64,000 nt of DNA, from assembly GCF_023227875.1 (NCBI RefSeq), contig NZ_JALOCH010000013.1, positions 5,977 through 69,976 on the forward strand. The letters run 5' to 3'. The notes under the pieces are model-generated. The model worked only from the letters and a program-made list of their open reading frames with translations, made no database searches and was not told the DNA's origin. This document shows positions 13,214-58,653 of this stretch, one piece after another. This DNA comes from Methanoregula sp. Lineage in GTDB: Archaea > Halobacteriota > Methanomicrobia > Methanomicrobiales > Methanospirillaceae. The translations under genes were made by a program, and so were the position numbers. Every line of letters begins with the position of its first letter. The first letter of the stretch is position 1.

Positions 13214-13216
13214 GTC

Positions 13217-14518: not shown

Positions 14519-14521
14519 GAT

Positions 14522-15828: not shown

Positions 15829-15851
15829 TTTTTTTTTACAGGTCCGGAATT

Positions 15852-32152: not shown

Positions 32153-32199
32153 GGTGTCTCCCGAAAAAAAGATGGTGGAACGTGGAGTTCACAATCTCC

Positions 32200-33846
32200 T
32201 TATTCCGTAATGGTAATCTCGTAATCCAACGCGTAGTCATGCGCAGTCGGATCAAACTTGTAGCCCTGGACAGTATCCTTTTTCACGATCAATACGCCAT
32301 AATCTGCAACCGGGATGATCGGCAAAAGATCATACGCGTCAGCTTCAACCTTGTTCCACTTGGCAAGTCTCTCTTTGTCATCGACCGTGTGCATAGCATC
32401 ATCGATCTGGGCATCCAGGGTGGCATTCTTATAATGGCCCTTATTGGTATCTCCAGTCGATTTGAACCACTTGGGAAGGATATATCCCGGATCGGGGACC
32501 ATGGCAATATTATTCGCGACAAGGTTCAGATCATACGTCCCTGCGGATACTCTGTCGTTACCGGCAGCACTGGCCATAACCTCAACCTTGGACTGGATAC
32601 CAATGGCTTTGAGATCCGATCCGATTGTTTCTGCCATGGGTGAAAGTGCCGGACGATTAGTCGCCGTTATGAGATTAATTGTGAGCGGCTGTCCGTCTTT
32701 CTCAACAATACCATCTCCATTCGTATCCTTGTATCCCATCTCCGCAAGAAGCGCTTTCGCCTTCACGGGGTCGTACGGGAGCTGCTCAAGGTTCTTGTTG
32801 CCGAATGACATGGAGGGAAGGAAGAATCCCTTGGCGGGCTGCCCGATTCCATAGAGGACATGATTGACAATATCCGTCCGGTTGATGGCAAGGGAGAGTG
32901 CCTGGCGTAAGCGGATATCCTGGAGAGGTGCACGATCAAAGTTAACATACAATACGTAAACCCTCGGAGTCAGGTATTTTTCAACAGTGATCCCCGGAAG
33001 TGCATCGATACGTTCGGCTTCGTTGTACGGTAAATCAACGGTGAAATCAATATCCCCTTTCTCAATGGCAAGGGTACGGCTGTTATGATCGGGTACTGAT
33101 GAGAAAACAACACCATCGAGTTTTACCGTTCCGGCCCAGTAATCCGGATTTTTCTTAACTGTAAACACACGGGTCTGCTGATCAAATGAATCGTACATCA
33201 TGGGTCCGGTACCCACCGGTATTGAGAAGTTCCCCTGCGCATTCAGGGAATCCGGGTGGATGATGCCAAAGTTGGAATAATGCAGGATGGCAGGCAGGAT
33301 GGGGATATTCGTGTTGGTCGTGACCTCGATCGTATGGTCGTCAATTACCCTGCTGCTCTTGTAATCCGCCATCTCTCTTGATGCCGCGTTGAGTTTACAC
33401 GTACGGTCAAGGGTAAATTTTACCTCGTTGGCGGTCATCGGCTGGCCATTGTGGAACTTCACGTCATCACGGAGCTTGAACTCCCATGTCGTAGGGCTGG
33501 TCTGATTCCAGGAGGTGGCAAGCTTGGGGGTAAGAACGAATTCCTGGGTTGCACCGACAAGCGGTTCGGTAACCATAGCCTTCTCCGTCACAAATACACC
33601 AGAAGAAGCCGGATCAATGCTTGTAATTGCCGACAAGTCCGCCATCCTTAGGATTTTGGGACTTGTTGATGCCAGGGTGGCAGAAGCAGCTGATGCTTGC
33701 GATGATCCTGCCTGTGTTACCGCGGGGGCATTCGAAGCAGGAGTGGCCTTCGCATTTGTGCTCGTACATCCGGCGATGAGTATTCCTGCAATGAGCAGGA
33801 ATACCAGTAAACATACAGTAAGTGTCCTTGTTTTCATGATAATCAC
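32200..33846 (-). CDS. Nickel/peptide ABC substrate-binding lipoprotein (SBP family 5)
   Basis: IAGC lipobox, PKLATSW..WEFKLRDDVKFHNG, PVGTGP, LRQALSLAINR. Confidence 0.92.
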   Translation of the reverse strand: MIIMKTRTLTVCLLVFLLIAGILIAGCTSTNAKATPASNAPAVTQAGSSQASAASATLASTSPKILRMADLSAITSIDPASSGVFVTEKAMVTEPLVGATQEFVLTPKLATSWNQTSPTTWEFKLRDDVKFHNGQPMTANEVKFTLDRTCKLNAASREMADYKSSRVIDDHTIEVTTNTNIPILPAILHYSNFGIIHPDSLNAQGNFSIPVGTGPMMYDSFDQQTRVFTVKKNPDYWAGTVKLDGVVFSSVPDHNSRTLAIEKGDIDFTVDLPYNEAERIDALPGITVEKYLTPRVYVLYVNFDRAPLQDIRLRQALSLAINRTDIVNHVLYGIGQPAKGFFLPSMSFGNKNLEQLPYDPVKAKALLAEMGYKDTNGDGIVEKDGQPLTINLITATNRPALSPMAETIGSDLKAIGIQSKVEVMASAAGNDRVSAGTYDLNLVANNIAMVPDPGYILPKWFKSTGDTNKGHYKNATLDAQIDDAMHTVDDKERLAKWNKVEADAYDLLPIIPVADYGVLIVKKDTVQGYKFDPTAHDYALDYEITITE

Positions 33847-33883
33847 AACAATACTATCTCAAAATCGGTCCTGAATTCGGTCT

Positions 33884-34660
33884 TTAGGTGTCTGTTCTTT
33901 TTGTCGCAGCGAGAATGTAGTACGATTTGCTTGGTGCGAATCTCCGGTACCAGGGTTGCTGCGGTTTCTGCATCTCGCGGATGTACATCAGGTCCCGGAA
34001 GCAGACATCAGTGAACCCGGCATGCTCAAGATAAGAGATCATGGTCTCCTTTGGCATTCCCCCGTCAAACGGGAGGTGGCTCCGGAGCTCTTGGGTATAC
34101 TGGCTGTGTTTGGTGCGATCGAAGATCTTTGCCAGCCCGTCACTCAGCATCCGTTTTGCCCGGGTTGGAAAGCTCCTGTCTTTCCAGACCCCGTCAATGA
34201 TGAGGACGTTTCCTCCGGTTTTTAAGACACGGTTCCATTCTTTCAGGGCGATATCCGGATGGGGGAGCGTCCAGAGCAAGTGGCGGTTGACGACGACATC
34301 AAACACGCCTTCTTCGAACGGGAGGTGTTCGGCATCCCCAATCTTCAGATCGATCGAGAGCTTCTGGGCATCCGCTTTATGGCGGGCTTTAGCCATCATC
34401 GCTTCGGACAGATCGACACCAGTAACATGATTTCCCATTTCAGCAAACAGGAGACCCATCGCACCGGTCCCGCAACCTACATCCAGAACGTTCTGATGAG
34501 ATGACGGCAGGTTCCGGCTCAGTTCATGTTTCCATGCCTCTTTCTCTTCCTGAGTACCGATTCTATGGCCGGGGCTCATGTCATACGTCGCAGACGACGA
34601 GTCCCAGCTTTTACGGACAGCATCCTTGATCTCGGCATCGTTTAACACCATATTAATCAA
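33884..34660 (-). CDS. Class I SAM-dependent methyltransferase (Methyltransf_11/UbiE-like)
   Basis: VLDVGCGTG, GVDLSEAM, GDAEHLPF..FDVVVNRHLLWTLP, RVLKTGG. Confidence 0.9.
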   Translation of the reverse strand: MINMVLNDAEIKDAVRKSWDSSSATYDMSPGHRIGTQEEKEAWKHELSRNLPSSHQNVLDVGCGTGAMGLLFAEMGNHVTGVDLSEAMMAKARHKADAQKLSIDLKIGDAEHLPFEEGVFDVVVNRHLLWTLPHPDIALKEWNRVLKTGGNVLIIDGVWKDRSFPTRAKRMLSDGLAKIFDRTKHSQYTQELRSHLPFDGGMPKETMISYLEHAGFTDVCFRDLMYIREMQKPQQPWYRRFAPSKSYYILAATKRTDT

Positions 34661-36043: not shown

Positions 36044-36466
36044 TTATTCATCGATAGAGATTGTCGTGAGTTTGACCGACTCGACACCCTTATGGGCCAT
36101 CAGTTTCTCGGCAAGAGCCTTGAGCTGTGAGCCGTCCCCGTGAACGAGGATAACTTCCAGGCACCGCTCATGGGTGACATGGGAGTGGAGCGAGGCCTTG
36201 ATAACCTCATGATAATCGTGCTCAATTTCAGTAATGGAAGAGAGAAGGTTGCGCTGCTCATGGTCGTATACCATCGTAATGACACCTTCCCGCGCCCCCT
36301 TGACATCCGACATCCACTTGTAATAGGTGATGTACGTACGGATCGCATCGCGTATGCCTTCCGACCGCGAGGAGTAGCCGCGGTAGTTCAGGATCTCATC
36401 AAACCGGTCGAGCAGGTTTTTCGGCAGCGATATGCCGATCCGGGATAGGTCGTCATCCATGGTCAT
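36044..36466 (-). CDS. nikR: Nickel-responsive regulator NikR (copy 1)
   Basis: RHH domain RIGISLPKNLLDRFD..SRSEGIRDAIR; Ni site H..HSH..C (LHSHVTHERCLEV). Confidence 0.95.
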   Translation of the reverse strand: MTMDDDLSRIGISLPKNLLDRFDEILNYRGYSSRSEGIRDAIRTYITYYKWMSDVKGAREGVITMVYDHEQRNLLSSITEIEHDYHEVIKASLHSHVTHERCLEVILVHGDGSQLKALAEKLMAHKGVESVKLTTISIDE

Positions 36467-36752
36467 GGTAATATCCGTTATGAGAATATCATTGCCGGGA
36501 GTTTTAATGTTTTTGAACAACGGGGAATCAGAGTGACACGAGATATGACGTTCATATGCCTGATAATTACCGGGGAAATACCAACCCGGGATGGCTCCCG
36601 CACCCGGGGTTAAAGAATGATCTCACACCACCATGATGGGGCAGATGCATCCCTGCCGGGGGTAGGGACAGCGCCATCCTGTTCCCATCTACCCTGTCCC
36701 ATTATCCTGCTGATGACGCGGGATCGCGCAACCGAAGGATTGTCATGTGCAG

Positions 36753-37478
36753 TCATACCGTCACCTTCCTGAAGACATGCGTGCAGATCGCAAGGAGCCC
36801 CCCGGTCAGTACCAGCAGGACGATGATCGGGACGGCAGGGAACCCCCCGACGGTCACGTCCCGCACCGCATCGATGGCATAACTGAGCGGGTTGAAATGC
36901 GCAATCGTTGCCAGCCATGCCGGCATCACGCTGTAGGGCATCAGGGCACTTGACGTGAAGAAGAGCGGCATCGAGATCATCGTATTGAACGCGGCATAGG
37001 AATCGTGATCTTCGAGATAGAGGGCTATGGTCGTAGCAAAGGTCGAGATGAGGACCCCGAAGAGGAAGAGGATGAAGTAGGTGAGGCCGTACTGCAGGGG
37101 ACTGAGCAGGGTGGCGCCGATCAGGAGCGCAATCACGAGGATGATGGTGGTCTGGATCAGGCCGCGTCCTGTAATGAAGAGGATCTTGCTGACAAGGATG
37201 CTGCTCCTTGGAGTCGGGAGGGCAAGGAACTTATTGAGGAAACCGAGGATCTTGTCAAACATCAGGAGCGCCCCGCCGGAGAGACCGGCCGAGAGCATGG
37301 TCATGACAAGGATGCCCGGCGTGATGAAATCGAGATAGTTTCCGGTAAACTGTACCGGCAGGGCAAGCCCGACAAAGATCAGCCATGCAGCCGGCATGAC
37401 CAGTGCGGATATCACGGCGACTTTCCCGCGGCCCCATTTCAGGAAATCCCGTTTCATGTAGGTAACGATACCGCTCAT
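36753..37478 (-). CDS. ABC-2 type permease
   Basis: DKILGFLNKFLALP, MPLFFTSSALMP, NPLSYAIDAVR. Confidence 0.9.
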   Translation of the reverse strand: MSGIVTYMKRDFLKWGRGKVAVISALVMPAAWLIFVGLALPVQFTGNYLDFITPGILVMTMLSAGLSGGALLMFDKILGFLNKFLALPTPRSSILVSKILFITGRGLIQTTIILVIALLIGATLLSPLQYGLTYFILFLFGVLISTFATTIALYLEDHDSYAAFNTMISMPLFFTSSALMPYSVMPAWLATIAHFNPLSYAIDAVRDVTVGGFPAVPIIVLLVLTGGLLAICTHVFRKVTV

Positions 37479-38431
37479 TTTCTCCTCCTGAGCATAATCC
37501 TGAACTTATCAAACTCGAACCCGTGCGGTTCCTCCTGCCGGCCCACGGCCTGCAGGAATACGTCGTCGAGGGTGGGTTCACGCAGCGACATGGACCGGAC
37601 AATGCACCCGGATTTTTTGAGCGCATCGGCAAGCAGCGGGAGTGCCTCCCTGCCGTTTTCGACGGTAAACGAGACTTCGTCATCGTTCCGGCCGACAAAG
37701 GCAATCCCGTCAACGTCCGGCAGGGCAAACATCCCCTCGACCTTTGCGGTTATCACGTCTTTCATCAGCCGCGCCTTGAGTTCTGCCGGTGTGCCGAGCG
37801 CGGCGATCTGGCCCCTGCTGATGATCCCGACCCGGTCGCAGAACTGGTCGGCTTCGTCCATGTAATGGGTTGTCACAAAGATCGTCATGCCTTTTTTCCG
37901 CAGGGCGCGTATATGTTCCCAGATCCTTTTCCGGGCTGCGACATCGAGCCCGATTGTCGGCTCGTCAAGGAAGAGCACGGAGGGTTCATGGACCAGGGCC
38001 TGCGCGAGTTCGAGCCGGCGGCGCATCCCCCCGGAATAGGTCCGTATGAGGTCGTCGGCCCGGTCGGACAGTTCCATCACGGCCAGCGCCTCATCGACCC
38101 GGTCCGCGGCATGAGGTACTCCATACAGGTCTGCGAAAAACCGGACATTCTCCCGGCCGGTCAACTTGATATCAACCGCCATGTCCTGCGGTACGTAACT
38201 CAGGGATTTCCTCACCATCTCGCCCTCCCGCATGACATCGTGCCCGCAGACACTGGCACTGCCTTCGGTAGGGGTGAGCAGCGTTGTCAGCATCAGTACC
38301 GTGGTGGTCTTGCCGGACCCGTTGGGGCCAAGCAGGGCGAAGATCTCGTTGTTTACCGAAAGGGTGAGATGGTTCACGGCACAAAGGACGCCATAATACC
38401 TGGTCAGGTCCGTTGTCTCGATCGCATTCAT
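37475..38431 (-). CDS. DrrA-like ABC-2 exporter ATP-binding protein
   Basis: GPNGSGKTT, YSGGMRRRLELAQAL, DEPTIGLD, TTHYMDEADQFCDR. Confidence 0.93.
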   Translation of the reverse strand: MNAIETTDLTRYYGVLCAVNHLTLSVNNEIFALLGPNGSGKTTTVLMLTTLLTPTEGSASVCGHDVMREGEMVRKSLSYVPQDMAVDIKLTGRENVRFFADLYGVPHAADRVDEALAVMELSDRADDLIRTYSGGMRRRLELAQALVHEPSVLFLDEPTIGLDVAARKRIWEHIRALRKKGMTIFVTTHYMDEADQFCDRVGIISRGQIAALGTPAELKARLMKDVITAKVEGMFALPDVDGIAFVGRNDDEVSFTVENGREALPLLADALKKSGCIVRSMSLREPTLDDVFLQAVGRQEEPHGFEFDKFRIMLRRRK

Positions 38432-38460
38432 CGCATTATCCCCCCTGGAGATCCCATAAT

Positions 38461-41400
38461 TCAGCGCTGATGTTTCGCATGTACTTTTCCCAGAATATCT
38501 TTCAGCCCGTCTCCCCATAAGGGATTGTCATCCATGGTGACGATGTCTACATTGCCCCCCTGGTAATCGCCCTGGCCTGACTGGTCTTCCATCCAGGACT
38601 CGATCTCAAGGTAGTTCTTTTTCAGTTCGTCCAGCACCCGTGGATCGGCATCCCAGAGGCTGCGCGTGTGTGCTTCAAGGAGCCTCCGTGCAATCTCTTC
38701 GAGGGCATGGGGGTTGTTCTGCTCGAAGAAGTCCCGCATCTCCTCATTATTGACAAATGTGTCCGCAATGTCGTTGAAGATCCAGTCGTCTACTTCCTGC
38801 GTTGAGGCTGACCAGCCATAGACCCGGGTCACCCGTTTCATGATATCGGAAGCCCCCTTGTACCCGTGATCTTTCATACCGTAGATCCATTTCGGGTTGA
38901 GGAGTTTTGTCCGGACTACGCGGCGGATCTCATCGGAGAGATCCCGCACCTCGACATTCCCGGGCTCGCGGGTATCCCCGTAATAGGGCTTCACGTTGTT
39001 GCCGGAATAGTGCCGGGCCGCTGCGGTGAAACCGCCCTGCGTGCCGAAATAGCAGCAGCAGCCGAGGAGGTCCTGCTCATCGGACTGGATCTTGTTGAAC
39101 GTGACCGAGACCGTCGAGAGGCTGGCTGCAAGGTGCTCGTGGGCATCCTTCCCCTGCACACCCGTCCCGTAGGCGTACCCGTTGTAGGCAACGAAGATAT
39201 CGGCAAGGTCCGCCTGGGTCTTCCATGCGCTGGAAAGCACGGCAAGGTTGACACCGCTTGCATACGAGCCCGGTTTGGAGGAGAAGATCCGCAGGGTTGC
39301 ATCGCGGAAACCGGCTCCGTTCTCAACCATGCTTTTCTGGGTGTGCCGGCGCACAAAGTTCCGGTCGGGAGGTTCGTCGAGAGCGGCAACGGCCTGTATG
39401 GCATCGTCGAGCAGCTCGTAGCAGTTCGCAAAGTTGTCCCGCAGGATGCCGGTCGTCCTTACCGTGATGTCGATCCGGGGGTGACCGAGCTTGTGGAGCG
39501 GGATGATCTCAAAGGACCGGACCTGGCCGTTCTTCTGCCAGACCGGCCGCGCACCGATAAGCCATAGCATCTCGGCAAACATCTCACCATCCGAAGCCAT
39601 GATGTCCCCTGCCATCCAGTAAAATGCGATGTTCTCCGGGACCGTGCCTTCCTCGCGGGAATATTTCTCAATGAGCGCGTCGGCCAGGCGCTGCCCCACC
39701 CTCCATGCAGCCTGTGTCGGGACACGGTGCGGGTCCAGTGAGTAAAAGTTCCGGCCGGTTGGCAGCACGTCCTCGTGCCCCCGGGTGATCTGGCCGGAAG
39801 GCCCTGCCGGCACGTACCTCCCGTCCATACCGTGAAGGAGGGCGTCGATCTCCCGGGATCCGTCGATGCGCCGGCTGATCCCGATCACCCGCTCCCGTAC
39901 TTCATTGAGGGCCTGTACCTGTTCGTCGGATATCCTCCTGCCGAAGATCAGGGGAACTGGGAGTGCCGGGTCTTCCAGCACCGTGGCGACAAAGCGCTCC
40001 AGTTCCAGGTCGACCTGTTCGAGGAGGGCGCCGTAGGACATTCCGTGTTCTTCAGAGTACCGGCCCTGTCCCGCAAGGAGATCGGTCAGGTCAAACCCGA
40101 TGACCCGGGCAATGAGCCGGCGTGGCGATGTCTCGCCGGAATCGAAGCGGATGATGGAACTGATGAACTCCACCCGTTGATCTCCCGACGGGACGGTGCC
40201 GAAGATATGCATGCCGGACTGGATCCGGGTATTGCGGATCTTCGAGAGGACCTCGTGGGCCTTTGCGGACATCACGTTAAGGGGCATGCCGTGGTTGAGG
40301 TGCATGTCCGCATCAAGATTTGCCCGGACCAGGGCTTCGATGAGCTGGTGCTGGAGGGCGTGGGCCCGGGCCGGGTCGTGTTTTGTGGTCTCGTACTCGG
40401 TGAGAATGGTGTCGATCTCCTCGAGGCCTTCGTAAAGCCCGCTGCCGGTCATGACGGTCTGCATGTGATCGACCAGCACCGCATAGCCGCGCCGCTTGGC
40501 AATCGTGCCTTCCGCCGGGTTGTCGGAGTTGTAGATGTACAGGAACGGCAGCGTCCCGGCAGCAATGTCCGGGAAACATTCCTGCGAGAGACCGGTCCCC
40601 TTGCCCGGCAGGAACTCGAGGTTGCCATGGGTGCCGACGTGGATGAGGACATCGGCATTCTGGACCTTGTCGAGCCAGTAGTAGGTGGCCAGGTACTGGT
40701 GGGGCGGCGGGCACTTTGGATCGTGGAGAATCTTGCAGACCGTGCCGTCGCACCGTGAGCCGTAACAGCCGCGCTTGGGCTGGACGTGGATCGTGGCATT
40801 GCCCAGCCGGATGCCGGTAATCAGCATCCGGTTGTCGAGCACCATCCCCTCACCGGGGGGCTCTCCCCAGGTGGCGTTCACCTGCTGTTGTACTCTCTCG
40901 GGAAGCGACCGGAAATAGGGCAGGTAGGTGGAGAGGTCCATCAGGGCGAGGGCTCCCCCGCATGCCACGATGTCCTGTACCGTTGTCCACCGGAACTCCG
41001 AGATCGCCTTTTTCTTCTGGATGGTTTCCACGAGTTCCTTGCCGGATGCCGGCGGGGTAACGGCATACCCTGCCCCCGCCATCTGGTGCAGGATGCGTGC
41101 AACGCTCTCCAGCGTGTCGAGGTTGGAGCCGCCGCCGATGTTTGCCTCGGTCCCGGCACACGGGTTGTTGTTTAAGATGAACGCGACCTTCCGCTCACCG
41201 GCAGGTTTCTTCGCAAGGTCAATCCACCGCCGGATCCTGCCCGCGATTTTCGCGCACCGATCCGGAACCGCTTCCCGGGTCTTGCCGCCATCGGGTTCGC
41301 TCCTGCTGGTTCCGACAAAGACCGGTTCTACCACCCCCTCGAACTCCGGAAGGGCTATCGACCACCCGATGTCCATGGAGAGCCCTTCCGATGCCCGCCA

Positions 41401-42267
41401 CTGTTCGAGGGTCATGTACATGGTTACGACAGGCGAGAATACCGGGACATCAAAGGACCTGAGCAGGTCGATCCCGTCCGAGGTACCGGTCCGGGACCGG
41501 GCACTGTCCCTCACCGAACCGAAGAGGAAAGGGATGAGCTTGACCAGCGCATCGATACGGGGAACGCCGTCACGGAGGAGGTAATCGGACACCACCTCGT
41601 CCATCCCCCGGGCCCCGAGGGCATCATCCCGGATCGCATAGGTAAAAACCGGGATGACTGCAAGGCCAACTGCCTCAAGACTGCCAATCAGCTGGTCTTC
41701 GAGGGCAACGTTGCCTGCCGCCCACGATGTACGGGAGAAGATCAGGGCAACCCGGTATTTCCCATCTGCACGTTCCCCATACCAGGCAAGATACTCGTCG
41801 ACGCTGGCAAATACCTGCGGTGCAGCAGGATGATACAGACCCTCCCAAGGAACATCCGCTGGGGGTGCTGCCAGGCAGCTGGCACCAAAGAGTTTCCGGT
41901 CGATATACCGGAGAAGGTTCTTAAAATTCTCGTCCCCATTGTTGGTGATGTACCGGTGGCAGGTAGTGACAATCTCTGCTCCCACGGTGGACTGGGTCCA
42001 GAAGGAGGGGTCGGGCCCGAGCGAGATGACGGGAACTGTTTTTCTGATCACTTCGATTTCCCGGTCCACCTCTTCCCAGAACAGGTCCGAGGTGTGATAG
42101 AGGAGGATTACATCAGATTGTTTCATAGAGGCGATTGCCTCTTCCCGTTTTTCCGGTGATTCTTCCAAAACGCGGGTGGGATAGACGGTACACCCGATAC
42201 CGCATCCCTCCGCTGCGCGTTTCATAACGGGGGCATAGGACCCCCACATAATCGAAGTTATTTTCAT
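38461..42267 (-). CDS. cobN: CobN/BchH-family class I chelatase large subunit
   Basis: About 1268 aa; QPKRG, HVGTHGNLEFLPGK, AKRRGYAVLVDH, LPTGRNFY, LLNPKWI..M..HGYKGA. Confidence 0.93.
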   Translation of the reverse strand: MKITSIMWGSYAPVMKRAAEGCGIGCTVYPTRVLEESPEKREEAIASMKQSDVILLYHTSDLFWEEVDREIEVIRKTVPVISLGPDPSFWTQSTVGAEIVTTCHRYITNNGDENFKNLLRYIDRKLFGASCLAAPPADVPWEGLYHPAAPQVFASVDEYLAWYGERADGKYRVALIFSRTSWAAGNVALEDQLIGSLEAVGLAVIPVFTYAIRDDALGARGMDEVVSDYLLRDGVPRIDALVKLIPFLFGSVRDSARSRTGTSDGIDLLRSFDVPVFSPVVTMYMTLEQWRASEGLSMDIGWSIALPEFEGVVEPVFVGTSRSEPDGGKTREAVPDRCAKIAGRIRRWIDLAKKPAGERKVAFILNNNPCAGTEANIGGGSNLDTLESVARILHQMAGAGYAVTPPASGKELVETIQKKKAISEFRWTTVQDIVACGGALALMDLSTYLPYFRSLPERVQQQVNATWGEPPGEGMVLDNRMLITGIRLGNATIHVQPKRGCYGSRCDGTVCKILHDPKCPPPHQYLATYYWLDKVQNADVLIHVGTHGNLEFLPGKGTGLSQECFPDIAAGTLPFLYIYNSDNPAEGTIAKRRGYAVLVDHMQTVMTGSGLYEGLEEIDTILTEYETTKHDPARAHALQHQLIEALVRANLDADMHLNHGMPLNVMSAKAHEVLSKIRNTRIQSGMHIFGTVPSGDQRVEFISSIIRFDSGETSPRRLIARVIGFDLTDLLAGQGRYSEEHGMSYGALLEQVDLELERFVATVLEDPALPVPLIFGRRISDEQVQALNEVRERVIGISRRIDGSREIDALLHGMDGRYVPAGPSGQITRGHEDVLPTGRNFYSLDPHRVPTQAAWRVGQRLADALIEKYSREEGTVPENIAFYWMAGDIMASDGEMFAEMLWLIGARPVWQKNGQVRSFEIIPLHKLGHPRIDITVRTTGILRDNFANCYELLDDAIQAVAALDEPPDRNFVRRHTQKSMVENGAGFRDATLRIFSSKPGSYASGVNLAVLSSAWKTQADLADIFVAYNGYAYGTGVQGKDAHEHLAASLSTVSVTFNKIQSDEQDLLGCCCYFGTQGGFTAAARHYSGNNVKPYYGDTREPGNVEVRDLSDEIRRVVRTKLLNPKWIYGMKDHGYKGASDIMKRVTRVYGWSASTQEVDDWIFNDIADTFVNNEEMRDFFEQNNPHALEEIARRLLEAHTRSLWDADPRVLDELKKNYLEIESWMEDQSGQGDYQGGNVDIVTMDDNPLWGDGLKDILGKVHAKHQR

Positions 42268-42371
42268 GTATGGTCCCATTGTCGGCAGGCTGGATAACTA
42301 CCTCTTCGCATAACACGTATCGTGAATTTTGACACGTCTATTGTTAAAAATATTGTCAATTATGCTATGCA

Positions 42372-42398
42372 GTTCTACAAAAATAAAATAAATAATAC
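42372..42398. promoter_or_regulatory. Candidate NikR-type operator in the divergent cobN / chlD-like promoter
   Basis: GTTCTAC-N13-ATAATAC, 11/14 match to GTAwTAC-N13-GTAwTAC. Confidence 0.35.
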
Positions 42399-42499
42399 TT
42401 AATTATAAGATAACGTTTAATTAGATTATCCTGCATCTCGTAACATCCAGACTACCGGGACAGGTATTTCCGGCAATAATATTCACCAAGGAGTCCAGC

Positions 42500-44449
42500 A
42501 TGCACCACTTCAATGACATCTACCCATTCTCCGCCATCGTAGGCCAGGAACTGATGAAGAAAGCCCTCATCCTGAACGCGATCAATCCCCGTATCGGGGG
42601 GGTACTGATCAAGGGGGAGAAAGGTACTGCGAAGTCAACGGCTGCCCGTGCCCTTGCCCACCTCCTGCCGGACCGGCAGGTAGTGGAGGGATGCCAATTC
42701 GGCTGCGACCCTGCCGACAAAAACGGCCTCTGCCCTGCCTGCCAGAAGAAACACCCGGATCTTGTCACGACAACCGCACGGATGCGTGTCATCGAACTCC
42801 CGATCAGCGCTACCGAAGACAAGGTGGTCGGCAGCCTGGATATCGGGCATGCCCTCAGGAAGGGAGAGAAAAAATTCGAGCCGGGTATCCTTGCACAGGC
42901 GCACCGGAATATCCTGTACGTGGACGAGGTCAACCTGCTCAATGATCATATTGTCGATGTCCTTTTAGATGCCGCTGCAATGGGTATGAACTTCATCGAA
43001 CGGGAAGGCGTCTCCTATGTCCACCCGTCTGCATTCATCCTGATCGGGACGATGAACCCGGAGGAGGGCGACCTCCGGCCCCAGCTCCTTGACCGATTCG
43101 GCCTCTGCGTGGATATCGAGGGGATCCATGACGCGGACACGAGAGTCGAAGTGATCCGGCGGAGGCAGAAGTATGACGATGCACCTGATGAGTTCATCTT
43201 CGGGTGGGCATCCTCTGAACAGGAGATGCGGGAGCGCATTGTCCGGGCACAGATACTCCTGCGGGAAGTGAAAGTTTCCGACGATATGCTGATGATGATC
43301 GCACAGATCTGCATTGACATGGCAGTCGACGGCCACCGTGCCGATATCACGATGATGAAAACAGCCTCGACCATCGCGGCATTCAACAACCGTGCTGAGG
43401 TAAACGAGGAAGACGTCCGCGAGGCCGCCACCCTTGTGCTTTCCCATAGGATGCGCCGCCGGCCATTCTCCGAACAGCCGATGGACAGGCAGAAGATAGA
43501 GCAGTCCATCCGGAATTCACGGGACGAACGGCAGCAGCCAAACCATGAGAACGAGCACAACCGCCACGAGCTGCCAAAAGAGAACACGATGCCGGATGGT
43601 TCCACGACAACGCAGTGTGCCGAAGGTTCGCCGTTCAGGCTTGACCAGAAACCGATCTCACCCCCGCGTCGCCCCGATGCATTCCGTCGCGAGGGCAGCG
43701 GGCGGAGGAGCGTGACGGAATCCCACGACGGCAGGTACGTCCGCAACCGGATCCCGGAAACAATCACTCCCGATATTGCGCTTGATGCCACAATCCGGGC
43801 CGCCGCTCCCCACCAGCATGGGCGGGTTGGAGATCTTGCCGTAAAGGTTGAACCCGCAGATATCCGCGAGAAGGTGAGGGAGCGGAAGACCGGCAATACC
43901 GTCCTGTTCGTAGTAGACGCAAGCGGGAGCATGGGAACCCAGCAGCGGATGACGGCAGTCAAAGGGGCGATCCTCACGCTCCTCATCGATGCGTACCAGA
44001 AACGCGACCGGGTGGGCCTTGTGGTATTCCGCGGGAAAAGTGCTGAAGTCCTCCTTCCCCCGACATCGAGCGTGGAACTGGCGCGCAAGTACATGCAGTC
44101 CCTGCCGGTGGGCGGGAAGACCCCCCTTGCCCACGGGCTCTCAAAGGGTTTCGAGGTCATCAGACGGGAGCTGATGATCAACCACCACACAATCCCGAGA
44201 ATGGTCCTGGTCTCCGACGGGAAAGGAAACGTGGGCATGGGTTCCGGCTCTCCCCTTGACGATGCAAAGGAGGTTGCCACCCGTATCCGCGATGCAGGGA
44301 TCTCCTCACTCGTCATCGATTCAGAAAAGGGATTTATCTCCTTTGGGCTTGCGCAGACACTTTCGGATGAACTGGGCGCAACCTACTGCAAGCTCGAGGA
44401 CCTCCGGGCCGAACAGCTCGCGGGCGTGGTGAAAGGTATCGGGATGTGA
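42500..44449 (+). CDS. ChlI/ChlD-type chelatase ATPase subunit (AAA+ plus VWA)
   Basis: [42 protein letters not shown]; MIDAS motif VVDASGSM. Confidence 0.93.
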
Positions 44450-44510
44450 ATGCGGTTTCACCAGCGGTCCTGCAGGTTCCATTATTACATACAACAAATC
44501 CGGAAAACAT

Positions 44511-45683
44511 ATGCCTGACAGCGCATCACCCGTATCGGCATCGGACGTATCGGTTCACACGCTCTACAAAGATGGCAGCGCCCGGCGGATCGCCCTGATC
44601 ACCGGCCTCTCGCTCCTCGTCATTGCAACCGCGGTCCTGTCAGCCGGTATCGGCACGGTCTCCATCACCCCACAGGACACCATCCTTGCCATCGGGCATT
44701 CCTCTGCGGTTACCCTGCAGGACTTCCTGCACGCGTACCTCCCTCCCATTGCCGCGTGGTACGATGCCATCCCGTTCACCATCCCCACCCCCACAAACCC
44801 GCAGGCCGAACTGATCGTTGTCGGGTTCCGGCTGCCCCGGATCTTCCTTGCAATCCTCACCGGCATCAGTCTTGCGGTTGCCGGGACGGTCATGCAGGGG
44901 CTGCTGCGCAATCCGCTGGTCAGCCCGTTCACGCTCGGGCTCTCGTCCGCCGCATCCTTTGGGGCTGCACTGGCGATCGTGCTCGGGCCCGGCATCCTCG
45001 TCTCGTACTTCCTGCTGAGCTACGACATGTGGATCGTGGTTTTTTCATTCCTCTTCGGCTGGCTTTCGATGATCCTGGTCTACTGGATCTCACGGTCGCG
45101 GGGCACAACGCAGTCGACCCTGATCCTTGCCGGGGTCGTGATTGGCTATCTCTTCACGGCCGGCGTGATGGCGCTCAAGTACACCACCAACAACGAGAAA
45201 CTCCGCGAACTGATGGTCTGGCTGATGGGAGGGATGTGGGGGGCGAGCTGGAACGCCGTCCTCCTTCTCATCCCGCTGGTCATTATCTGTTTCTTTCTTC
45301 TCGAACGGAAGGCATGGGACCTAAATGCCCTCTCTGCGGGAGATGACGTGGCAAAGAACCTCGGGATCAATGTCGAGCGCCTGCGTCTCTCCGGCCTGAT
45401 GGTCTCGACCTTTGCCGCGTCCTGCTGCCTTGCGTTTACCGGCATTATCGGCTTTGTCGGCCTCATGGGCCCGCACATCTGCCGGATGATTATTGGCAGC
45501 GATCACCGCTATCTTATCCCGTGTGCCGGCCTGATGGGTGCGGCAATCCTGCTGCTCTCGGATACGGTTGCCCGTACCATCATGAGCCCGGTGGAGATCC
45601 CAGTAGGCATCATCATGTACGCTATCGGAGGTATCTTCTTTCTCTTCATGATCATGCGGGGGAAAGGAAGGGGACTGTATTAG
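44511..45683 (+). CDS. FecCD/BtuC-family ABC permease
   Basis: FRLPRIFLA, QGLLRNPLVSPFTLGLSSAASFGA, GIIGFVGLMGPH, EIPVGII. Confidence 0.93.
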   Translation: MPDSASPVSASDVSVHTLYKDGSARRIALITGLSLLVIATAVLSAGIGTVSITPQDTILAIGHSSAVTLQDFLHAYLPPIAAWYDAIPFTIPTPTNPQAELIVVGFRLPRIFLAILTGISLAVAGTVMQGLLRNPLVSPFTLGLSSAASFGAALAIVLGPGILVSYFLLSYDMWIVVFSFLFGWLSMILVYWISRSRGTTQSTLILAGVVIGYLFTAGVMALKYTTNNEKLRELMVWLMGGMWGASWNAVLLLIPLVIICFFLLERKAWDLNALSAGDDVAKNLGINVERLRLSGLMVSTFAASCCLAFTGIIGFVGLMGPHICRMIIGSDHRYLIPCAGLMGAAILLLSDTVARTIMSPVEIPVGIIMYAIGGIFFLFMIMRGKGRGLY

Positions 45684-45696
45684 GAGGTATGACCGG

Positions 45697-46473
45697 ATGG
45701 AGATCTCGATTGAGAATGTCTGTAAGGATTATGGGGAGAGACGGGTACTGGATACTATCTCGTTCTCTTTTGGAAAATCCGAGATTGTCGCCCTTGTCGG
45801 CCCCAACGGTTCCGGCAAGTCCACGCTCATCAAAACCCTTGCAGGGGTCCACAAACAGACCTCGGGGAGCATCAGCATCGACGGGACGGACATCCGGAAG
45901 ATCGATCCCATCGAGCTTGCCAGGTGTGTCGGGTACGTCCCCCAGCATTTCACCTACACCCTCTACTCCACGGTCTTCGAGACGGTCCTCCTTGGCAGGA
46001 GACAGCACATAAGGTGGTCGGTTTCGGATGAGGAACTCTCCCGGGTGCAGCACTCGCTCGATGTGCTGGAGATGGGGCAGATGGCCGGCAGTTACATGGA
46101 TCAGCTCTCCGGAGGGGAGCGGCAGAAAGTGTTTATTGCACGGGCCCTGGCTCAGGACCCGAAACTCTTCCTCTTCGACGAGCCGACCAGCGCACTCGAT
46201 ATCCGGTACCAGATCGAGGTGATGGAGACCATGCGGGAGATCACGTGGGAACGCGGGGCCGGCATGATCATTGCCGTCCACGACCTCAACCTTGCCTACC
46301 GCTATGCCGACACGGTTGTCGTGCTTCACGGGGGAAAGATGGCAGGCTACGGGAAACCCCAGGAGGTCCTTACACCGACATGCATCAACAAGGTTTACGG
46401 AGTCGAGTCGTTCATCGTGGAGAACGAGTTCGGGAAATTCATCGTGCCGTTCCGGGCAAAGGCCGTAATCTAA
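45697..46473 (+). CDS. FecE/BtuD-family ABC ATP-binding protein
   Basis: GPNGSGKST, LSGGERQKVFIARALAQ, DEPTSALD, VHDLNLA. Confidence 0.94.
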   Translation: MEISIENVCKDYGERRVLDTISFSFGKSEIVALVGPNGSGKSTLIKTLAGVHKQTSGSISIDGTDIRKIDPIELARCVGYVPQHFTYTLYSTVFETVLLGRRQHIRWSVSDEELSRVQHSLDVLEMGQMAGSYMDQLSGGERQKVFIARALAQDPKLFLFDEPTSALDIRYQIEVMETMREITWERGAGMIIAVHDLNLAYRYADTVVVLHGGKMAGYGKPQEVLTPTCINKVYGVESFIVENEFGKFIVPFRAKAVI

Positions 46474-46547
46474 CCACGGGATACTATCAAAAACATGTGC
46501 CGGAATGATGATCAGATATCCCTCCTGTCAGCCTTTACTTTTTTTCA

Positions 46548-47034
46548 GAGAGAGAATGAACCCATTGATATGGTCTTGCTCATCTCCTTGTCCACAACGA
46601 GCCAAGTGATCCTGGTATTATTTCTCAGGATGACACTGCCGAATTTCATGCCGTTAGGATCGTATAAACCTTCGATAAAAAAAAGTATCGCCGGCCTGGA
46701 TCGTGGCATCGGCGTTATCGGCGCTGCTCCCCACTTCCGTGAAGTTTCTTACCAGACTGCTGCTATAGGAGACGTCATTGATGGATAGCGAGGTTTTGTC
46801 ATCATGCTCCCGTAAAATCACGTTTAAGGAACTGAGCATGAACCCGGAACGTGCTCTCAATGCGTCCAGCGTAAATCTCAGTATCACTGCACCATCAGGA
46901 CGGTTCAAGAACGCTGTATGGAATTCCCTGAATGCAACGGTTAATAAAACCCTCACCCGCTGCAATAAAAATGTAAAAAGGCCCGGTGACATAGAACCCG
47001 ACAAGCGGGAGATCCAGCTGACTTTCAATCCCAA
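46548..47034 (-). pseudogene. Possible frameshifted gene (pilin/archaellin-like remnant)
   Basis: The 126-aa ORF crosses an A8 run at 46677-46684; removing one base joins ..ATIQAGDTFF to IEGLYDPNGMKFGSVILRNNTRITWLVVDKEMSKTISMGSFSL*. Confidence 0.3.
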
Positions 47035-47309
47035 CCTGACCCTGATCCGTGAAACGACAGAGATTACGATTGGTGCGTACTAACAATCGTAACCTGCGAC
47101 TCACGCGGGGCATGCGGGAGACCATCACTTCGGATGATCATGAGAGAATAATGTCGTACTCTTCATAGCACTCCCGATACTGCCAGAAGGTTCCATAGGA
47201 CAGACCTGCCGCTCTCAAATAATAAATTCTTACCAAGTACAATTTTTACTCTCAAAGTTTCAAAACATTAAAACATCTTAAAAATGATATTCTCCTGACA
47301 GAGGTTACC

Positions 47310-47732
47310 ATGACCATGGACGACGATCTCTCCCGTATTGGCATCTCATTGCCGAAAAACCTGCTCGACAAGTTTGATGAAATCCTGAACTATCGTGGCT
47401 ATTCCTCCCGTTCTGAAGGTATACGAGATGCGATCCGCACGTACATCTCGTATTACAAATGGATGTCGGATGTCAAAGGGGAGCGGGAGGGGGTCATCAC
47501 GATGGTGTACGACCATGAGCAGCGGAATCTTCTTTCTGATATTATGGATATCGAGCACAATTATCATGAAGTCATCAAGGCATCGCTCCACTCCCATATC
47601 ACCCATGAGCGGTGCCTGGAAGTTATCCTCGTTCACGGGGACGGCTCACAACTTAAGACCCTTGCCGAGAAACTGATGGCCCACAAGGGTATCGAGTCCG
47701 TGAAACTCACGACCATCGCTATTGAGGATTAG
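47310..47732 (+). CDS. nikR: Nickel-responsive regulator NikR (copy 2)
   Basis: Same motifs as copy 1; 13 of 140 residues differ. Confidence 0.95.
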   Translation: MTMDDDLSRIGISLPKNLLDKFDEILNYRGYSSRSEGIRDAIRTYISYYKWMSDVKGEREGVITMVYDHEQRNLLSDIMDIEHNYHEVIKASLHSHITHERCLEVILVHGDGSQLKTLAEKLMAHKGIESVKLTTIAIED

Positions 47733-47952
47733 GTATTATATACCAATATCAGTAAAATCGGGTTTATTACACGAATCCAATACCCATTTCTCAGAAGATT
47801 TTTACGATCCCGGATTATCATGCAACAGGCCGGGTTGTCCAATCGTTCCCTGTCGACGACTGAATTGGGGAAACAGTTCTTCCACACTCATCGGTTCCCA
47901 CGTTGGGGATTCATAAAAAAATGGTCCGGAAGACCCGCCCCATCCGGCTTAC

Positions 47953-50900
47953 TTACTTTTTCTTCAGCGTGAGGTTGACCTCATTGACCATATTGGGCTG
48001 GACCATGAATCCTTCATAGGTTGCCTTGGTCTGGTTCTGGACCACCTTGATCGTATATTCCCCAGCAGTCATGTACTGGAATACGTACGGTGTTTTCTTC
48101 CCGGTATCCTTGCCATTGATGTAGATCTTGCCTCCCGAAGGCGTGCTTGCGATGGAAAGCATGCCGTTCAGGTAGGGGTCGAGGACAAAGCGGCGAACCA
48201 GGTCCACACCGGTAATATGGACGGTGCTTTCAAGGGGATAATATCCCGGCTTCGAGACCCTGATGAGATGGTCCATATCCGACAGGTTCCTGACGAGATA
48301 AGGGGTGGTAAGACCCGTGGAAAACCCGTCCACATAGATGTCTGCCCCGGGGGGATCGGATTCCACCCACACGTTGTTGAGAGTATATCTTCGGGGTTCT
48401 ATCACGTTTTCGCTGGAATTGTCCGCGAAGATCGTGTAGGTGATATAGGAATCGTTTGCATGGAGCGTGACATAATTCTGCGATGATTGTACCGGGATGC
48501 TCTCTGCCATATGGTACTGGTGCGAATTCCCGTTTATCGTGAATACGGAACTGTTGAATGCTGTTGAATTGATCACAGGTCGTGCAAGGACAGGGTTCTC
48601 ATACGAAGTGATAGAGACCGGGGTGATGATCCCGTTAGCAACCCAGACTTCCTTCTTCTCGATGGGGAACTTGATCTTCTCCTGGTTTGCGGACGCCGTG
48701 GTACTGAGTTTTACCTGTACGGTATGTTTGCCTTCCTTGAGGCCGTAAATAATTCCCGGGGTGGTAAAGCCGGTCTTCTTCCCGTCAACATAAATGATGG
48801 CCTGGTCGGGGCTAGACGTTACATATACACCCCCGTATTTTTCCTGATCCAGGAATTCTTTTTCGGTGTCTGCAACCTTTTCCAACGATAACACGGAAGT
48901 TCCCCGTGTTGCCAGATCAAATGTTATCGTCTGGTTTGTGGTAAGAAAAATCCGTTCCTCTACGGGGTCAAAACCCGGCATATCAACGGACAGGGTATGG
49001 TTCCCGGCCGTAAGACCCGTGACGGTATCCGGTGTTGCCTTGCCGCGGTACTGGTAATCCACCGAGACGAGCGCCCCGGGGGGGTTGGAGAGGACGCGGA
49101 CCGCGTACGTCTTGCCGGACTGGTTGAGGACTTCCTCAATCGGACCGGTTGCCAGCAGGGCCGTGTTTGTCTGGTTCACGGTACTGGTGGGATCGGAAGT
49201 ATCCTCCTCAACATCGGCTTCACCCCCTCTGACCGTGGAACTGCTATTGACGGCAAATCCCCCTTCAATGGCTTTTTTCACCACGAGAATGAGGTTCCGG
49301 TTTTCCATGTAATCGCCTTTGGTCTCCCGGCCAATGCTCCCGATACCTGCGCTGTTACCGGAACGCAGGACATCCGTGCTCACGTTCAGCCGCGCAATGC
49401 TGATGCCGGAGGATCCGCCACTCAGCGGGTTCTGCCACTCACGGCCATTGAACATGACCCGGTTGTCATTCCCGGATGCAGCAGTGCTGATGGCGTACAG
49501 TTCTCCCTGAGATATCGAGGTCATATTGAGCGCGCCGGGGAAGGTGATACGTGTAACGGCATTTTCCGTATCAACGTTGAACTCGGGGTTTGCATAGACA
49601 GCGTCGGAACCTTCCCCGATCCAGTACTCGATATCCTGGCCATCCGGGTCCTCGGACACGACAAGGAGCGTGACACCGTACACAGCAAACTTGTCCGGCG
49701 TTTCCCCGGTATTGGTAATGGTAAACGACAGGTCTGGGTTCCCGGTCACGATCCCGTCAGGAAGGTAACAATGCGTCTCGACCGGGTAATCGTAGGTCCC
49801 GCTCCCTTTCCGGTCGGAATACGTCTGGTCCTTTGTCAGCTGTTCGCCATTCATGTCCACCGTGAGGGATGCAGGGGTCCCGGCGAGGGTATCGGCATTG
49901 TAACTCCATGTCGTATAGACATACAGCCGGGCTTCCTTTACCGATGCATTCGGGGTCAGGTTGAGCGTGAGCGGGTAGGTGGCGCTCATACCCTTGCCAA
50001 GCAGCCCGGAATATCCCCCGGAGTCCCTGAGGTCAAGGCTGCCGTGCGCGGATCCGTGCGTATGCATTGAGAGGGATTTCCCGGAATACCCCACCGCTTC
50101 CGTTGAATTGTCGTTCAGGACTGATGTGTTGCCCCCGGCTGCCTCAAGGATGAGATCGACGGACTCTGTCTGGTCCTCCTCAAGGCTGACGGTTGCAGTT
50201 GCGTTACTGAAACCGGGTTTTACGAGGTCGATTGTGTGATCGCCGATAATTACTCCCTCCAGGAGGGAGTCTGACTGGGCCGACATGTTTTTCCCGTCAA
50301 GGTATATCCACGCACCGTCGGGATCGGATGTGATGTCAATGGACCCGTTGATCTGGGGGATGGTGATGTTCACTATCGTGGTCTCCTTGTTCCTGACGTT
50401 GACGGTTACCGGATCAGGTTCACGGTATTTATCATTGTCCACGAGGATTACCTGCACGGTATGCTCCCCGATACTGATGCCGGGGAAGGTCTGGTTGGTT
50501 GTCTTGCCGGTCTCTTCGTCATCAAGCAGGATCTGTGCCCCCGCGGGGTTGGAGGTTATCTCCAGCGTACCTTCCGGCCGTTCCCTGAATGCAACGGTGA
50601 GGAGTGCGAGGGGCAGTTTGAAATATCCGCCTGCCCGTTCGTACTTCAGCGTGCTGTCATCTTCCAGATCGATCGAATCGGTGACCTCCCAGTCCACTGT
50701 GCCAAAATACTCTCCCTGAGGAGCACCGTTCCCGATAAGTTCGTCGCCATTGAAGGTGTAGGTCCCGTCCACGCTTGCCATGTACAGCGAGGAGAGGGTG
50801 GCCGTAAATTCCCGGTCTTCGCTTGCAACGATCTGGGACGTACCGAATTCGGTTTCCCCGGTATAGCCGTTATCGTTCAATGCGCTCATGGGGTCGTGGC

Positions 50901-51501: not shown

Positions 51502-51739
51502 TGAGAGAAACCTGCCCGCCGCCATGAGGGGAATACATGTACTTCGCACTATTGACAGGATTGTTGTAATGCAGGAACCGTGGCGAGAGGCGATCATAAC
51601 GGACAGTTATTTATTTGCTATTATTAAAAATTTTATTGAGTTTCATTATAATTCGTATGAATTTTTTTAAAAATATTCTTACCTTGGCCGGACCTGTTCG
51701 CAGTCCCCCGTTAAGAACCATCGTTGTGCCTTTGGGAAA

Positions 51740-58589: not shown

Positions 58590-58653
58590 TTTATCATCCC
58601 GTTCCAAGGATTTGATTTATTAATAATAAATTATCAGTAATTTTTTCCATTAC

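Follow-up and report, generated by a model that had tools for sequence, protein, structure and literature searches.

What does a CobN-like class I chelatase do in a strict anaerobe when its gene stands together with genes for an importer and for an exporter-like pump? The question is raised by a stretch of 64,000 nucleotides from Methanoregula sp. (contig NZ_JALOCH010000013.1, positions 5,977 to 69,976, assembly GCF_023227875.1; called the window below). Here a cobN-like gene and a DrrAB-type pair of ATP-binding cassette (ABC) proteins of the ABC-2 type are encoded divergently from a ChlI/D-like motor gene and a FecCD-type importer. As far as the sequences tell, this region is one copy of a widespread and uncharacterised module of strict anaerobes. 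Its CobN-like proteins form a clade that we define by two signatures, a GCCCYFG motif at the position of a catalytic histidine and a four-cysteine insertion. Genes in the window were identified by Pfam and NCBIfam scans, which confirmed in name and position every cassette gene that had been listed by an earlier reading of the bare letters, hereafter the original prediction. All coordinates refer to the window and the main ones are collected in Table 1.

We found that PF02514 covers the CobN-like protein over its full length (1247 bits, profile positions 1-1088 of 1090). Among the solved structures ChlH (4zhj, 553 bits) scores best, followed by Mycobacterium tuberculosis CobN (7c6o, 546 bits), CobN (9uk9, 470 bits) and finally HmuS (9d26, 336 bits). 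Alignment places H551, E555 and E590 on ChlH H621, E625 and E660, the latter two being marked by the mutant ChlH chains, and all three residues are invariant in the clade. In ChlH, H621, E660 and H1174 are essential catalytic residues, and the strictly conserved E625 was suggested to deliver Mg (PMC13297055). The motif around H551 has been described as HxG(T/A)HG, and the corresponding H538 of HmuS is essential (PMC12583661). Because the family match is full-length and H551, E555 and E590 coincide with the catalytic residues of ChlH, the protein has probably retained class I chelatase chemistry.

Both signatures of the clade lie outside this conserved set. The position of ChlH H1174, which is an aspartate in M. 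tuberculosis CobN, is taken by Cys1076 within GCCCYFG (alignment to 4zhj and 7c6o). We collected 80 loci encoding clade members, onto which the window proteins were mapped; among the members from these 80 genomes C1074 and C1075 are present in 73/73 sequences each and C1076 in 69/73. The second signature is an invariant RGC-x4-C-x4-C insertion of 4-5 residues, which together with C374 provides four cysteines (C374, C505, C510 and C515). We detected this insertion neither in ChlH nor in M. tuberculosis CobN, nor in the canonical CobN paralogues encoded at the same loci. The cysteine substitutions in the predicted active site suggest that a soft metal is handled.

For the clade comparison we used 143 sequences, taken from the best 150 matches in 1.84 billion representative proteins with a few added. 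The four-cysteine superclade comprises 60 of these 143 sequences and is nearly monophyletic in a rough neighbour-joining tree (60 of 62 tips), with the canonical Asp-rich CobN and the DxDH-type ChlH/BchH proteins outside it; there, residue 374 is Pro or Thr. Within the superclade solely the subgroup of the window keeps HxGxHG, the E590 equivalent and the CC(C) motif together, and a H640-x3-H644 pair is specific to this subgroup, which is not cleanly monophyletic in the same rough tree. The closest relatives of the protein share 86% identity (Methanoregula formicica) and 93% identity (a Methanoregula metagenome-assembled genome). About 22 of the 60 superclade representatives (P0147, P0161, P0168 and others) have neither the second histidine of HxGxHG nor the CC motif. 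Judged by these losses they are probably non-catalytic paralogues, and one such group is the 'CobN' of Prosthecochloris.

Membership in each of the three known families could be rejected. TIGR02257, the model for true CobN, stays below its cut-off (771.9 vs 822.05 bits), and the CCC motif, the ChlI/D partner and the absence of cob/cbi genes in the 64 kb also speak against an aerobic CobN. By profile scores, alignments and tree alike, the protein does not cluster with aerobic-pathway CobN, a grouping that would have refuted the original prediction. The high score with NF004646 ('cobaltochelatase subunit CobN', PRK05989.2-4; 1786.8 bits vs a cut-off of 1468) comes from a naming model only. The BchH model TIGR02025 is barely passed (839.6 vs 829 bits), far under the NF004646 score, and together with the replacement of H1174 by Cys this excludes BchH/ChlH. 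An identity close to HmuS, which had been considered too, fails on the features that define HmuS: a Met-rich insertion is missing from the CobN-like protein (Met does not exceed 6 per 100 residues), its N-terminus MKITSIMWGSYAPVMKRAAEG contains no hydrophobic span and hence no membrane anchor, and in place of the domain-V motif LSLDHxxEFMGG we read QDLLGCCCYFGTQGG. Taken together, the sequence comparison places the protein in a clade of its own, apart from aerobic CobN, ChlH and HmuS.

The predicted motor of this chelatase is equally well preserved. TIGR02442 ('putative cobaltochelatase') matches the ChlI/D protein with 811.6 bits at a cut-off of 779.45, and ChlI structures match it at E-values of 1e-91 to 1e-94. 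Walker A (GEKGTAKS), Walker B (ILYVDE) and the metal-ion-dependent adhesion site (MIDAS, DASGS) are all conserved in the partners of the clade. Since nearly all of the ChlI- and ChlD-like partners share the unusual alanine in Walker A, we regard it as a family trait and not as decay. The motor is usually encoded by one fused gene in archaea, and by a short ChlI and a long ChlD gene in bacteria and in a second cassette of M. formicica.

On the transport side we found a complete type II ABC importer set with a FecCD permease, an ATPase and a cluster-A binding protein. The permease matches PF01032 (293 bits) and has archaeal BtuC as its top NCBIfam model (240 bits), while the top model of the ATPase is a haem ABC ATPase (222 bits); these and all other specific equivalog models for the importer proteins remain under their cut-offs. 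Because a FecCD importer needs a binding protein, one was to be expected in the cassette, and the original prediction had missed it. A PF01497 gene lies about 5 kb from the FecCD genes, in the same position as in M. formicica. Its product has a signal sequence, a lipobox-like VSGC and a Thr/Pro linker, its nearest solved structures are BtuF and a haem-binding protein (about 54 bits), and the lipoprotein is likely the partner of the FecCD importer. DrrA passes TIGR01188 (327.6 bits, cut-off 312.45), and with PF13732 and PF01061 present, the DrrAB-type pair presumably acts as an exporter.

Is the arrangement more than a local accident? For the linkage counts we took the 34 loci (18 archaeal, 16 bacterial) with at least 5 kb on both flanks. 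A FecCD or PF01497 gene is present in 28/34, an ABC-2 permease in 24/34 and a ChlI/D gene in 23/34, and 17/34 loci contain all three components. The same linkage recurs in dozens of genomes and is therefore far from chance; chance juxtaposition of the cassette genes is rejected on this conserved synteny. The importer/exporter linkage on which the original prediction depended is thus conserved, and it extends across archaea and bacteria. The archaeal hosts are Methanoregula, Methanolinea, Methanospirillum, Methanoperedens, ANME-2 (anaerobic methanotrophic archaea, ANME), Methanosarcina and Methanothrix. Among the bacteria we find Bacillota (including Desulfofundulus and Syntrophomonadaceae), Syntrophobacteraceae and Desulfobacterium/Desulfosarcina, together with Nitrospirota, Thermodesulfobacterium and Fibrobacter. 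Cultured hosts exist with M. formicica, Methanolacinia petrolearia, Methanocella conradii, Methanococcoides and Desulfofundulus. In M. formicica the full cassette is found twice, with 20 kb in between, and Methanolacinia has two CobN genes with importers.

The details of the gene order are informative. In archaea drrA-drrB directly follows cobN. Diderm bacteria (for example L070, L027, L065, L061 and L080) have a single co-oriented, tight cluster that includes a TonB-dependent receptor. In Desulfobacterium N47 (L070) the order is TonB-dependent receptor, binding protein, FecCD, ATPase, DrrA, DrrB, CobN, ChlD and ChlI, and the loci of Nitrospirota, Fibrobacter and Thermodesulfobacterium resemble it; in L027 ExbB, TonB and a DtxR-type regulator lie downstream of the module. 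That the bacterial module is one operon with a receptor of haem/B12-like type fits a role on an imported large chelate. The best model for the bacterial receptors is the haem/haemoglobin receptor subfamily, followed by B12 and siderophore receptors, all under their cut-offs, and these matches, like those of the importer, hint that the cargo is a tetrapyrrole-like chelate of a kind yet to be described.

In Methanosarcinales the FecCD importer is replaced by a set resembling an energy-coupling factor (ECF) transporter, which consists of an unannotated protein of 520-550 aa, a fused double ABC ATPase and CbiQ. The drrAB genes are kept, and stop and start codons overlap. At two of these loci (L085, 13819-19409; L016, 13830-19652) cobN is translationally coupled to the genes of the 520-550 aa protein, the double ATPase, CbiQ and drrAB. 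The set looks like an ECF-type importer with an unrecognised substrate-capture component.

How could these parts work together? Our preferred, still tentative reading, to which we assign a probability of roughly 40%, is that the cassette harvests nickel from an imported metallo-tetrapyrrole-like chelate and exports the spent ligand. Under nickel scarcity the cell would take up a nickel-bearing tetrapyrrole-like chelate, for example F430 or its breakdown products, which are to be expected in methanogenic habitats. Uptake would proceed through the PF01497 lipoprotein, FecCD and the ATPase, with a TonB-dependent receptor added in diderms and an ECF-type importer used in Methanosarcinales. In the cytoplasm the ChlI/D motor would then drive the CobN-like subunit so that the soft metal is pulled out and passed to the cysteine ligands, and the ABC-2 pump would finally expel the metal-free ligand.

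Each step has its own argument. That the catalytic residues are retained and that an AAA+/VWA motor is dedicated to the enzyme argues for ATP-driven metal-tetrapyrrole chemistry. Because a full uptake route for a large chelate constantly accompanies the chelatase, the substrate should come from outside, as it does for HmuS. The replacement of His/Asp by three cysteines points to a soft metal, and the setting of NikR and Nik-type importers in Methanoregula points to nickel. A DUF4198 protein and a perhaps CooC-like P-loop ATPase in the window, as well as HycI and hcg genes beside the cassette of M. formicica, belong to this nickel context. To our knowledge, a biosynthetic chelatase is not as a rule encoded together with uptake genes. 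Such a linkage exists for the dechelatase HmuS (PMC12583661). A role tied only to F430 biosynthesis would not be general, because the module is also present in bacteria without F430 synthesis. What we infer on this basis, in addition to what the alignments provide, is a tetrapyrrole cargo, nickel as the metal, removal as the direction, an exporter role for the pump and control by NikR.

Several observations weigh against this proposal. We know of ATP-driven ChlI/D motors solely in metal insertion. FecCD/PF01497 importers can presumably also move non-tetrapyrrole nickel complexes, as NiuBDE of Helicobacter pylori does, so the cargo need not be a tetrapyrrole. HmuS itself is reported to be NADH-dependent and not ATP-dependent. 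In six loci tetrapyrrole-synthesis genes lie within 10 kb of the module: three TP_methylase genes and CbiG in L061, a CbiA/CfbB-like amidase gene in L070 and L022, and a TP_methylase gene in L011, L067 and L076. These neighbours point to a biosynthetic or salvage link. Control by nickel, which the original prediction had included, is suggested here by the adjacency of NikR, and this adjacency is confined to Methanoregula (8/18 archaeal and 1/16 bacterial loci). A search of the divergent gap (42268-42499) gave no significant NikR operator, the best palindrome match having a shuffle p of about 0.28. In favour of nickel, proteomics in Methanothermobacter marburgensis gave about 7e6 intensity units for CobN1, which rose to about 2.4e9 (roughly 300-fold) under nickel limitation, whereas CobN1 falls under iron limitation; NikR1 and two transporters also go up when nickel is limiting (PMC12350162). 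This response would bear on the cassette if CobN1 (D9PVN3) belongs to the clade; its neighbours, ribD and a FwdC-related gene, differ from those of the cassette.

A bolder version of the nickel-harvesting proposal sees in the Cys-rich CobN-like/ChlI/D pair a new type of dechelatase, powered by ATP, which would remove nickel (or a different soft metal) from hydroporphinoid or corrinoid cofactors that the cell has imported, F430 among them. Such 'nickel piracy' would live on the remains of methanogens, be common to methanogens, ANME and their syntrophic and sulfate-reducing neighbours, and use a dedicated pump for the emptied ring. In this complete form we consider it unlikely.

The alternative that survives best, which we judge possible if on the unlikely side, is metal insertion. 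Here the enzyme would insert nickel or cobalt with high affinity and at the expense of ATP into sirohydrochlorin or an intermediate further along the pathway, under conditions where CfbA or CbiX, which work without ATP, find too little free metal; the importers would merely supply the metal as a small complex, and the ABC-2 pump would be unrelated or protective. This is in line with the established view that metal insertion is the reaction of every ATP-driven class I enzyme with a ChlI/D or CobS/T motor known so far. The kept residues H551, E555 and E590 agree with it, cysteine ligands would raise the affinity for nickel or cobalt, and the cbi/cfb-like genes near the module in six loci would find their place. 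In Methanosarcinales, moreover, cobN is paired with a transporter of the ECF/CbiQ type, a family that includes nickel and cobalt ion importers. The massive induction of CobN1 in M. marburgensis under nickel limitation (PMC12350162) is also compatible with insertion, and a nickel-chelatase role had been proposed by Thauer and colleagues in 2011, before CfbA was identified (PMC3087415). CfbA is by now the established nickel chelatase of F430 synthesis, however, and the clade is present in many bacteria that make no F430. A tight operon with a haem/B12-like TonB-dependent receptor, a binding protein and FecCD would be unusual for a biosynthetic enzyme, and the invariant coupling of cobN with drrAB is left unexplained. 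Insertion thus accounts less well than nickel harvest for the TonB/binding-protein linkage and for the bacteria without F430.

A reading along the database names, a CobN-ChlID cobaltochelatase that acts in cobamide metabolism by late cobalt insertion or corrinoid salvage and is served by a BtuFCD-type corrinoid importer, appears to us rather improbable. Two models support it by name, as NF004646 and TIGR02442 are both above cut-off, and the permease is best matched by archaeal BtuC and the binding protein is nearest to BtuF. Cbi genes adjoin the module in L061, a cobalamin riboswitch was detected just downstream of the module in L060, and a salvage role was speculated about for haloarchaea (PMC8305020, a review). 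The failed TIGR02257 cut-off and the change of the Asp-rich motif of canonical CobN into CCC do not agree with such a function, nor does the content of the window, in which neither CobS/CobT nor cob/cbi genes occur in 64 kb. Cobalt is established to be inserted early in these anaerobes, and the neighbouring regulator is NikR and not a B12 sensor. In addition, no Rfam family reached threshold in the 64-kb window, so that no riboswitch was found there, and a cobalamin riboswitch was not found upstream of any of the 16 bacterial modules. Control of the BtuS type by a cobalamin riboswitch was hence not found at either place, which counts against a corrinoid cargo.

Least convincing, and in our view very unlikely, is a non-catalytic nickel-binding, storage or hand-over protein that is made in bulk during nickel shortage for the maturation of hydrogenase, carbon monoxide dehydrogenase or Mcr and remodelled by ChlI/D: the very high abundance of CobN1, termed a 'possible metal-chelating protein' (PMC12350162), the many invariant Cys and His residues of the clade, and the loss of the catalytic His in related superclade clades, which means that the fold is usable non-catalytically, speak for it, but the clade keeps the residues of tetrapyrrole chemistry except H1174 as well as a dedicated AAA+/VWA motor, importer and exporter; such a role fits the degenerate sister clades better than that of the window.

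What, then, is the role of the two NikR genes, which in the original prediction bracket the cassette and are reached from its divergent promoter? Both copies pass NF002169 (200 bits, cut-off 111) with their RHH and NikR_C domains, are 91% identical, and contain the segments VYDHEQRNL and LHSHVTHERC. We take these to hold the nickel-site residues H76, H87, H89 and C95 of Escherichia coli NikR (H-x-H-x5-C plus His). The nikR2 gene sits on an insertion that is not present in the closest relatives L001, L002 and L081 (M. formicica), where the end of fecE is separated from the end of the DUF3344 gene by about 160 nt. From this comparison nikR2 appears to be a recent, strain-specific duplicate, and the two-NikR bracket is not a conserved feature. 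A segment of the insertion (46495-46649) resembles a distant part of L001, and open reading frames (ORFs) of 97 and 126 aa there have no family matches.

With regard to the promoter, the divergent orientation of the genes agrees with what had been predicted. The NikR genes do not follow this promoter, as they are set apart from their neighbouring genes by 286 nt (nikR1) and 836 nt (nikR2), and each has its own conserved TATA-like upstream block, TTCAAAAAC(A/T)TTAAAA followed by GATATTCTCATCAC. Because of these gaps and blocks, nikR1 and nikR2 are probably separate transcription units that the divergent promoter does not serve. A single copy of the TTACCAAGTACAA block, upstream of nikR, occurs in the window.

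Generic inverted-repeat scans of the promoter gaps gave AT-rich chance matches only. A pattern derived from the cobN gap, GTATTAY-N13-GTANNAC, is not supported as a cobN/chlID operator, since the gap of the window matches it no better than shuffled sequence does. It led to a perfect palindrome elsewhere, GTAATAC-TTTTTTAAAAAAA-GTATTAC (58654-58680), which is located 47 nt upstream of a 299-aa ORF (57708-58607, minus strand) without family match. GTAATAC-N13/14-GTATTAC with at most one mismatch occurs in the cobN/chlID gap of Methanoperedens (L018, position 9874) and in L004, L009 and L067. A near-perfect GTAATAC palindrome is present in the cobN/chlID gaps of ANME-2 too, with a similar site in L019; the reversed arrangement had no matches in 1.36 Mb. 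We consider GTAATAC-N13/14-GTATTAC a candidate operator.

Some of the gene calls depend on the choice of start codon. For nikR1 the longest ORF is 36044-36520, and the start at 36466 is likelier, giving MTMDDDLSRI, which is the N-terminus of nikR2. The longest drrA ORF extends to 38518; the start at 38431 is likelier, as the M. formicica orthologue has 318 aa, and drrA is followed by drrB with a 4-nt overlap. The cobN-like ORF spans 38461-42279, while the database version of 1268 aa begins at 42267, so that the cobN-chlID gap amounts to 220-232 nt, depending on the cobN start.

Table 1. Coordinates of the cassette, its motifs and the associated genes in the 64-kb window.
Feature	Position	Strand	Remarks
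nikR1	36044-36466	-	140 aa from likely start; RHH_1 and NikR_C; NF002169, 200 bits
ABC-2 (DrrB-like) membrane subunit	36753-37478	-	PF01061, E 1.6e-28
DrrA-like ABC ATPase	37475-38431	-	318 aa from likely start; TIGR01188 and DrrA1-3_C
CobN-like class I chelatase large subunit	38461-42267	-	1268 aa; PF02514, NF004646
Cys1074-Cys1075-Cys1076 (GCCCYFG)	39052-39060	-	aligns with ChlH H1174 position
HVGTHG motif	40624-40641	-	H551, equivalent of ChlH H621 and HmuS H538
C505-x4-C510-x4-C515 insertion	40735-40767	-	clade-specific
C374 codon	41158-41160	-	fourth member of invariant four-cysteine set
cobN/chlID divergent intergenic region	42268-42499	.	AT-rich
ChlI/D fusion (AAA+ and VWA/MIDAS)	42500-44449	+	649 aa; TIGR02442
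FecCD/BtuC-type permease	44511-45683	+	PF01032
Importer ABC ATPase	45697-46473	+	PF00005
Strain-specific insertion, ~1.34 kb	46459-47957	.	holds nikR2
nikR2	47310-47732	+	NF002169, 200 bits
PF01497 substrate-binding lipoprotein	51740-52861	-	Pfam E 1.1e-27

To survey the surroundings of the cassette, we scanned the 64 kb against Pfam, taking the largest ORFs of 100 aa or more that do not overlap each other. The scan gave no TP_methylase, CbiX/CbiK, CbiD/G, Hem or Cfb family in these ORFs, and the claim that ring-biosynthesis genes are absent from the window therefore holds. The window is instead an island of metal transporters: besides three ABC importers of the Nik/Opp type it encodes another FecCD importer, which is accompanied by three PF01497 binding proteins and a protein with an FmdE domain, as well as two more DrrAB pairs and four or five S-adenosylmethionine (SAM) methyltransferases. 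Present as well are a MinD/ParA-type, perhaps CooC-like, P-loop ATPase, a MacB-type ABC system, DUF3344 surface proteins and a DUF4198 protein with a weak match to the NikL-type nickel/cobalt ECF subunit.

Within the island a chelatase-free pattern repeats itself, in which a Nik/Opp- or FecCD-type importer is combined with a class I SAM methyltransferase and often with a DrrAB pair (271-4762 and 8176-18343, plus strand; 20154-26467, 26836-28496 and 28647-34660, minus strand). The methyltransferases of this pattern are encoded at 8176-9222, 11066-11995, 23845-24699 and 33884-34660 and the ABC-2 pairs at 16599-18343 and 26836-28496. The pattern suggests cycles of import, modification and export for metal ligands. 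DUF3344 proteins with PEGA, CARDB or PKD repeats are encoded on the minus strand at 47953-51597, 54824-55813 and 55782-57596, and at 1987-5646 of L081 and 17778-23807 of L082. In both Methanoregula and Methanocella their genes are repeatedly found next to cassettes for binding proteins, MacB and CobN, and the proteins might act together with the uptake route at the cell surface. A toxin-antitoxin-like gene pair, for a HEPN-domain and a nucleotidyltransferase-domain protein, is located at the island's edge (61546-62507, minus strand).

In M. formicica (L081, 18843-23807) the cassette adjoins genes for a second NikR_C protein, the HycI hydrogenase protease, DUF4198, HcgA-like, HcgB and HcgC. Products of the hcg genes synthesise the cofactor of the [Fe]-hydrogenase (Hmd), an enzyme without nickel, and because of this we regard the neighbourhood as a nickel-shortage setting. 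A search of sequencing runs found the window sequence in DNA metagenomes from landfill and groundwater and in no RNA runs.

In the literature that we searched there is no description of the CCC motif, of the four-cysteine insertion or of an importer-chelatase-ABC-2 module across archaea and bacteria. The module may explain the role of the puzzling CobN/ChlH homologues of methanogens and other strict anaerobes. If it serves nickel harvest or insertion, this would matter for how nickel limits methane production and for the cycling of trace metals in landfills, wetlands and digesters, and the class I chelatases would gain a thiolate-based variant of their chemistry. Nickel piracy, if true, would give a function to the unexplained CobN paralogues of methanogens and provide a way for nickel bound in F430 to be recycled in anoxic habitats.

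How does the module compare with the systems that are already known? Nickel uptake in H. pylori by FrpB4/FecA3 and NiuBDE, as we understand it, likewise combines a TonB-dependent receptor with a PF01497/FecCD/ATPase importer for nickel complexes and is regulated by NikR; it presumably has neither a chelatase nor an ABC-2 pump, and we take its cargo to be a nickel-amino-acid complex and not a macrocycle. With aerobic CobNST (7c6o, 9uk9) the CobN-like protein shares fold, length, the histidine of HxGxHG, the E555/E590 equivalents and an ATP-driven partner of the AAA+/VWA type. It differs by CCC in place of the S-D-D motif, by the four-cysteine insertion, by a ChlI/D partner instead of CobS/CobT, by the lack of cob genes nearby and by its strictly anaerobic host. 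The Mg chelatase ChlH/BchH-ChlI-ChlD (4zhj, 8osf) provides the best-scoring solved relative, with H621, E625 and E660 conserved, and the AAA+ module of the motor matches ChlI about as closely as one ChlI protein matches another (E 1e-94). Here the differences are the exchange of H1174 for Cys, the fusion of I and D in archaea, the Walker A variant GEKGTAKS and a host that is not a phototroph. HmuS of the Bacteroidota hmu operon (9d26) is likewise a CobN/ChlH-superfamily subunit that occurs with TonB-dependent uptake in anaerobes, and its HxG(T/A)HG histidine is conserved. Its LSLDHxxEFMGG corresponds to QDLLGCCCYFG in the CobN-like protein, and HmuS has a Met-rich insertion and an N-terminal membrane anchor. 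HmuS is reported to depend on NADH, whereas an AAA+/VWA motor and an ABC-2 pump accompany the CobN-like protein, and the metal context is NikR here and iron there. What our preferred reading shares with HmuS is the logic: a metallo-tetrapyrrole is imported and its metal is taken.

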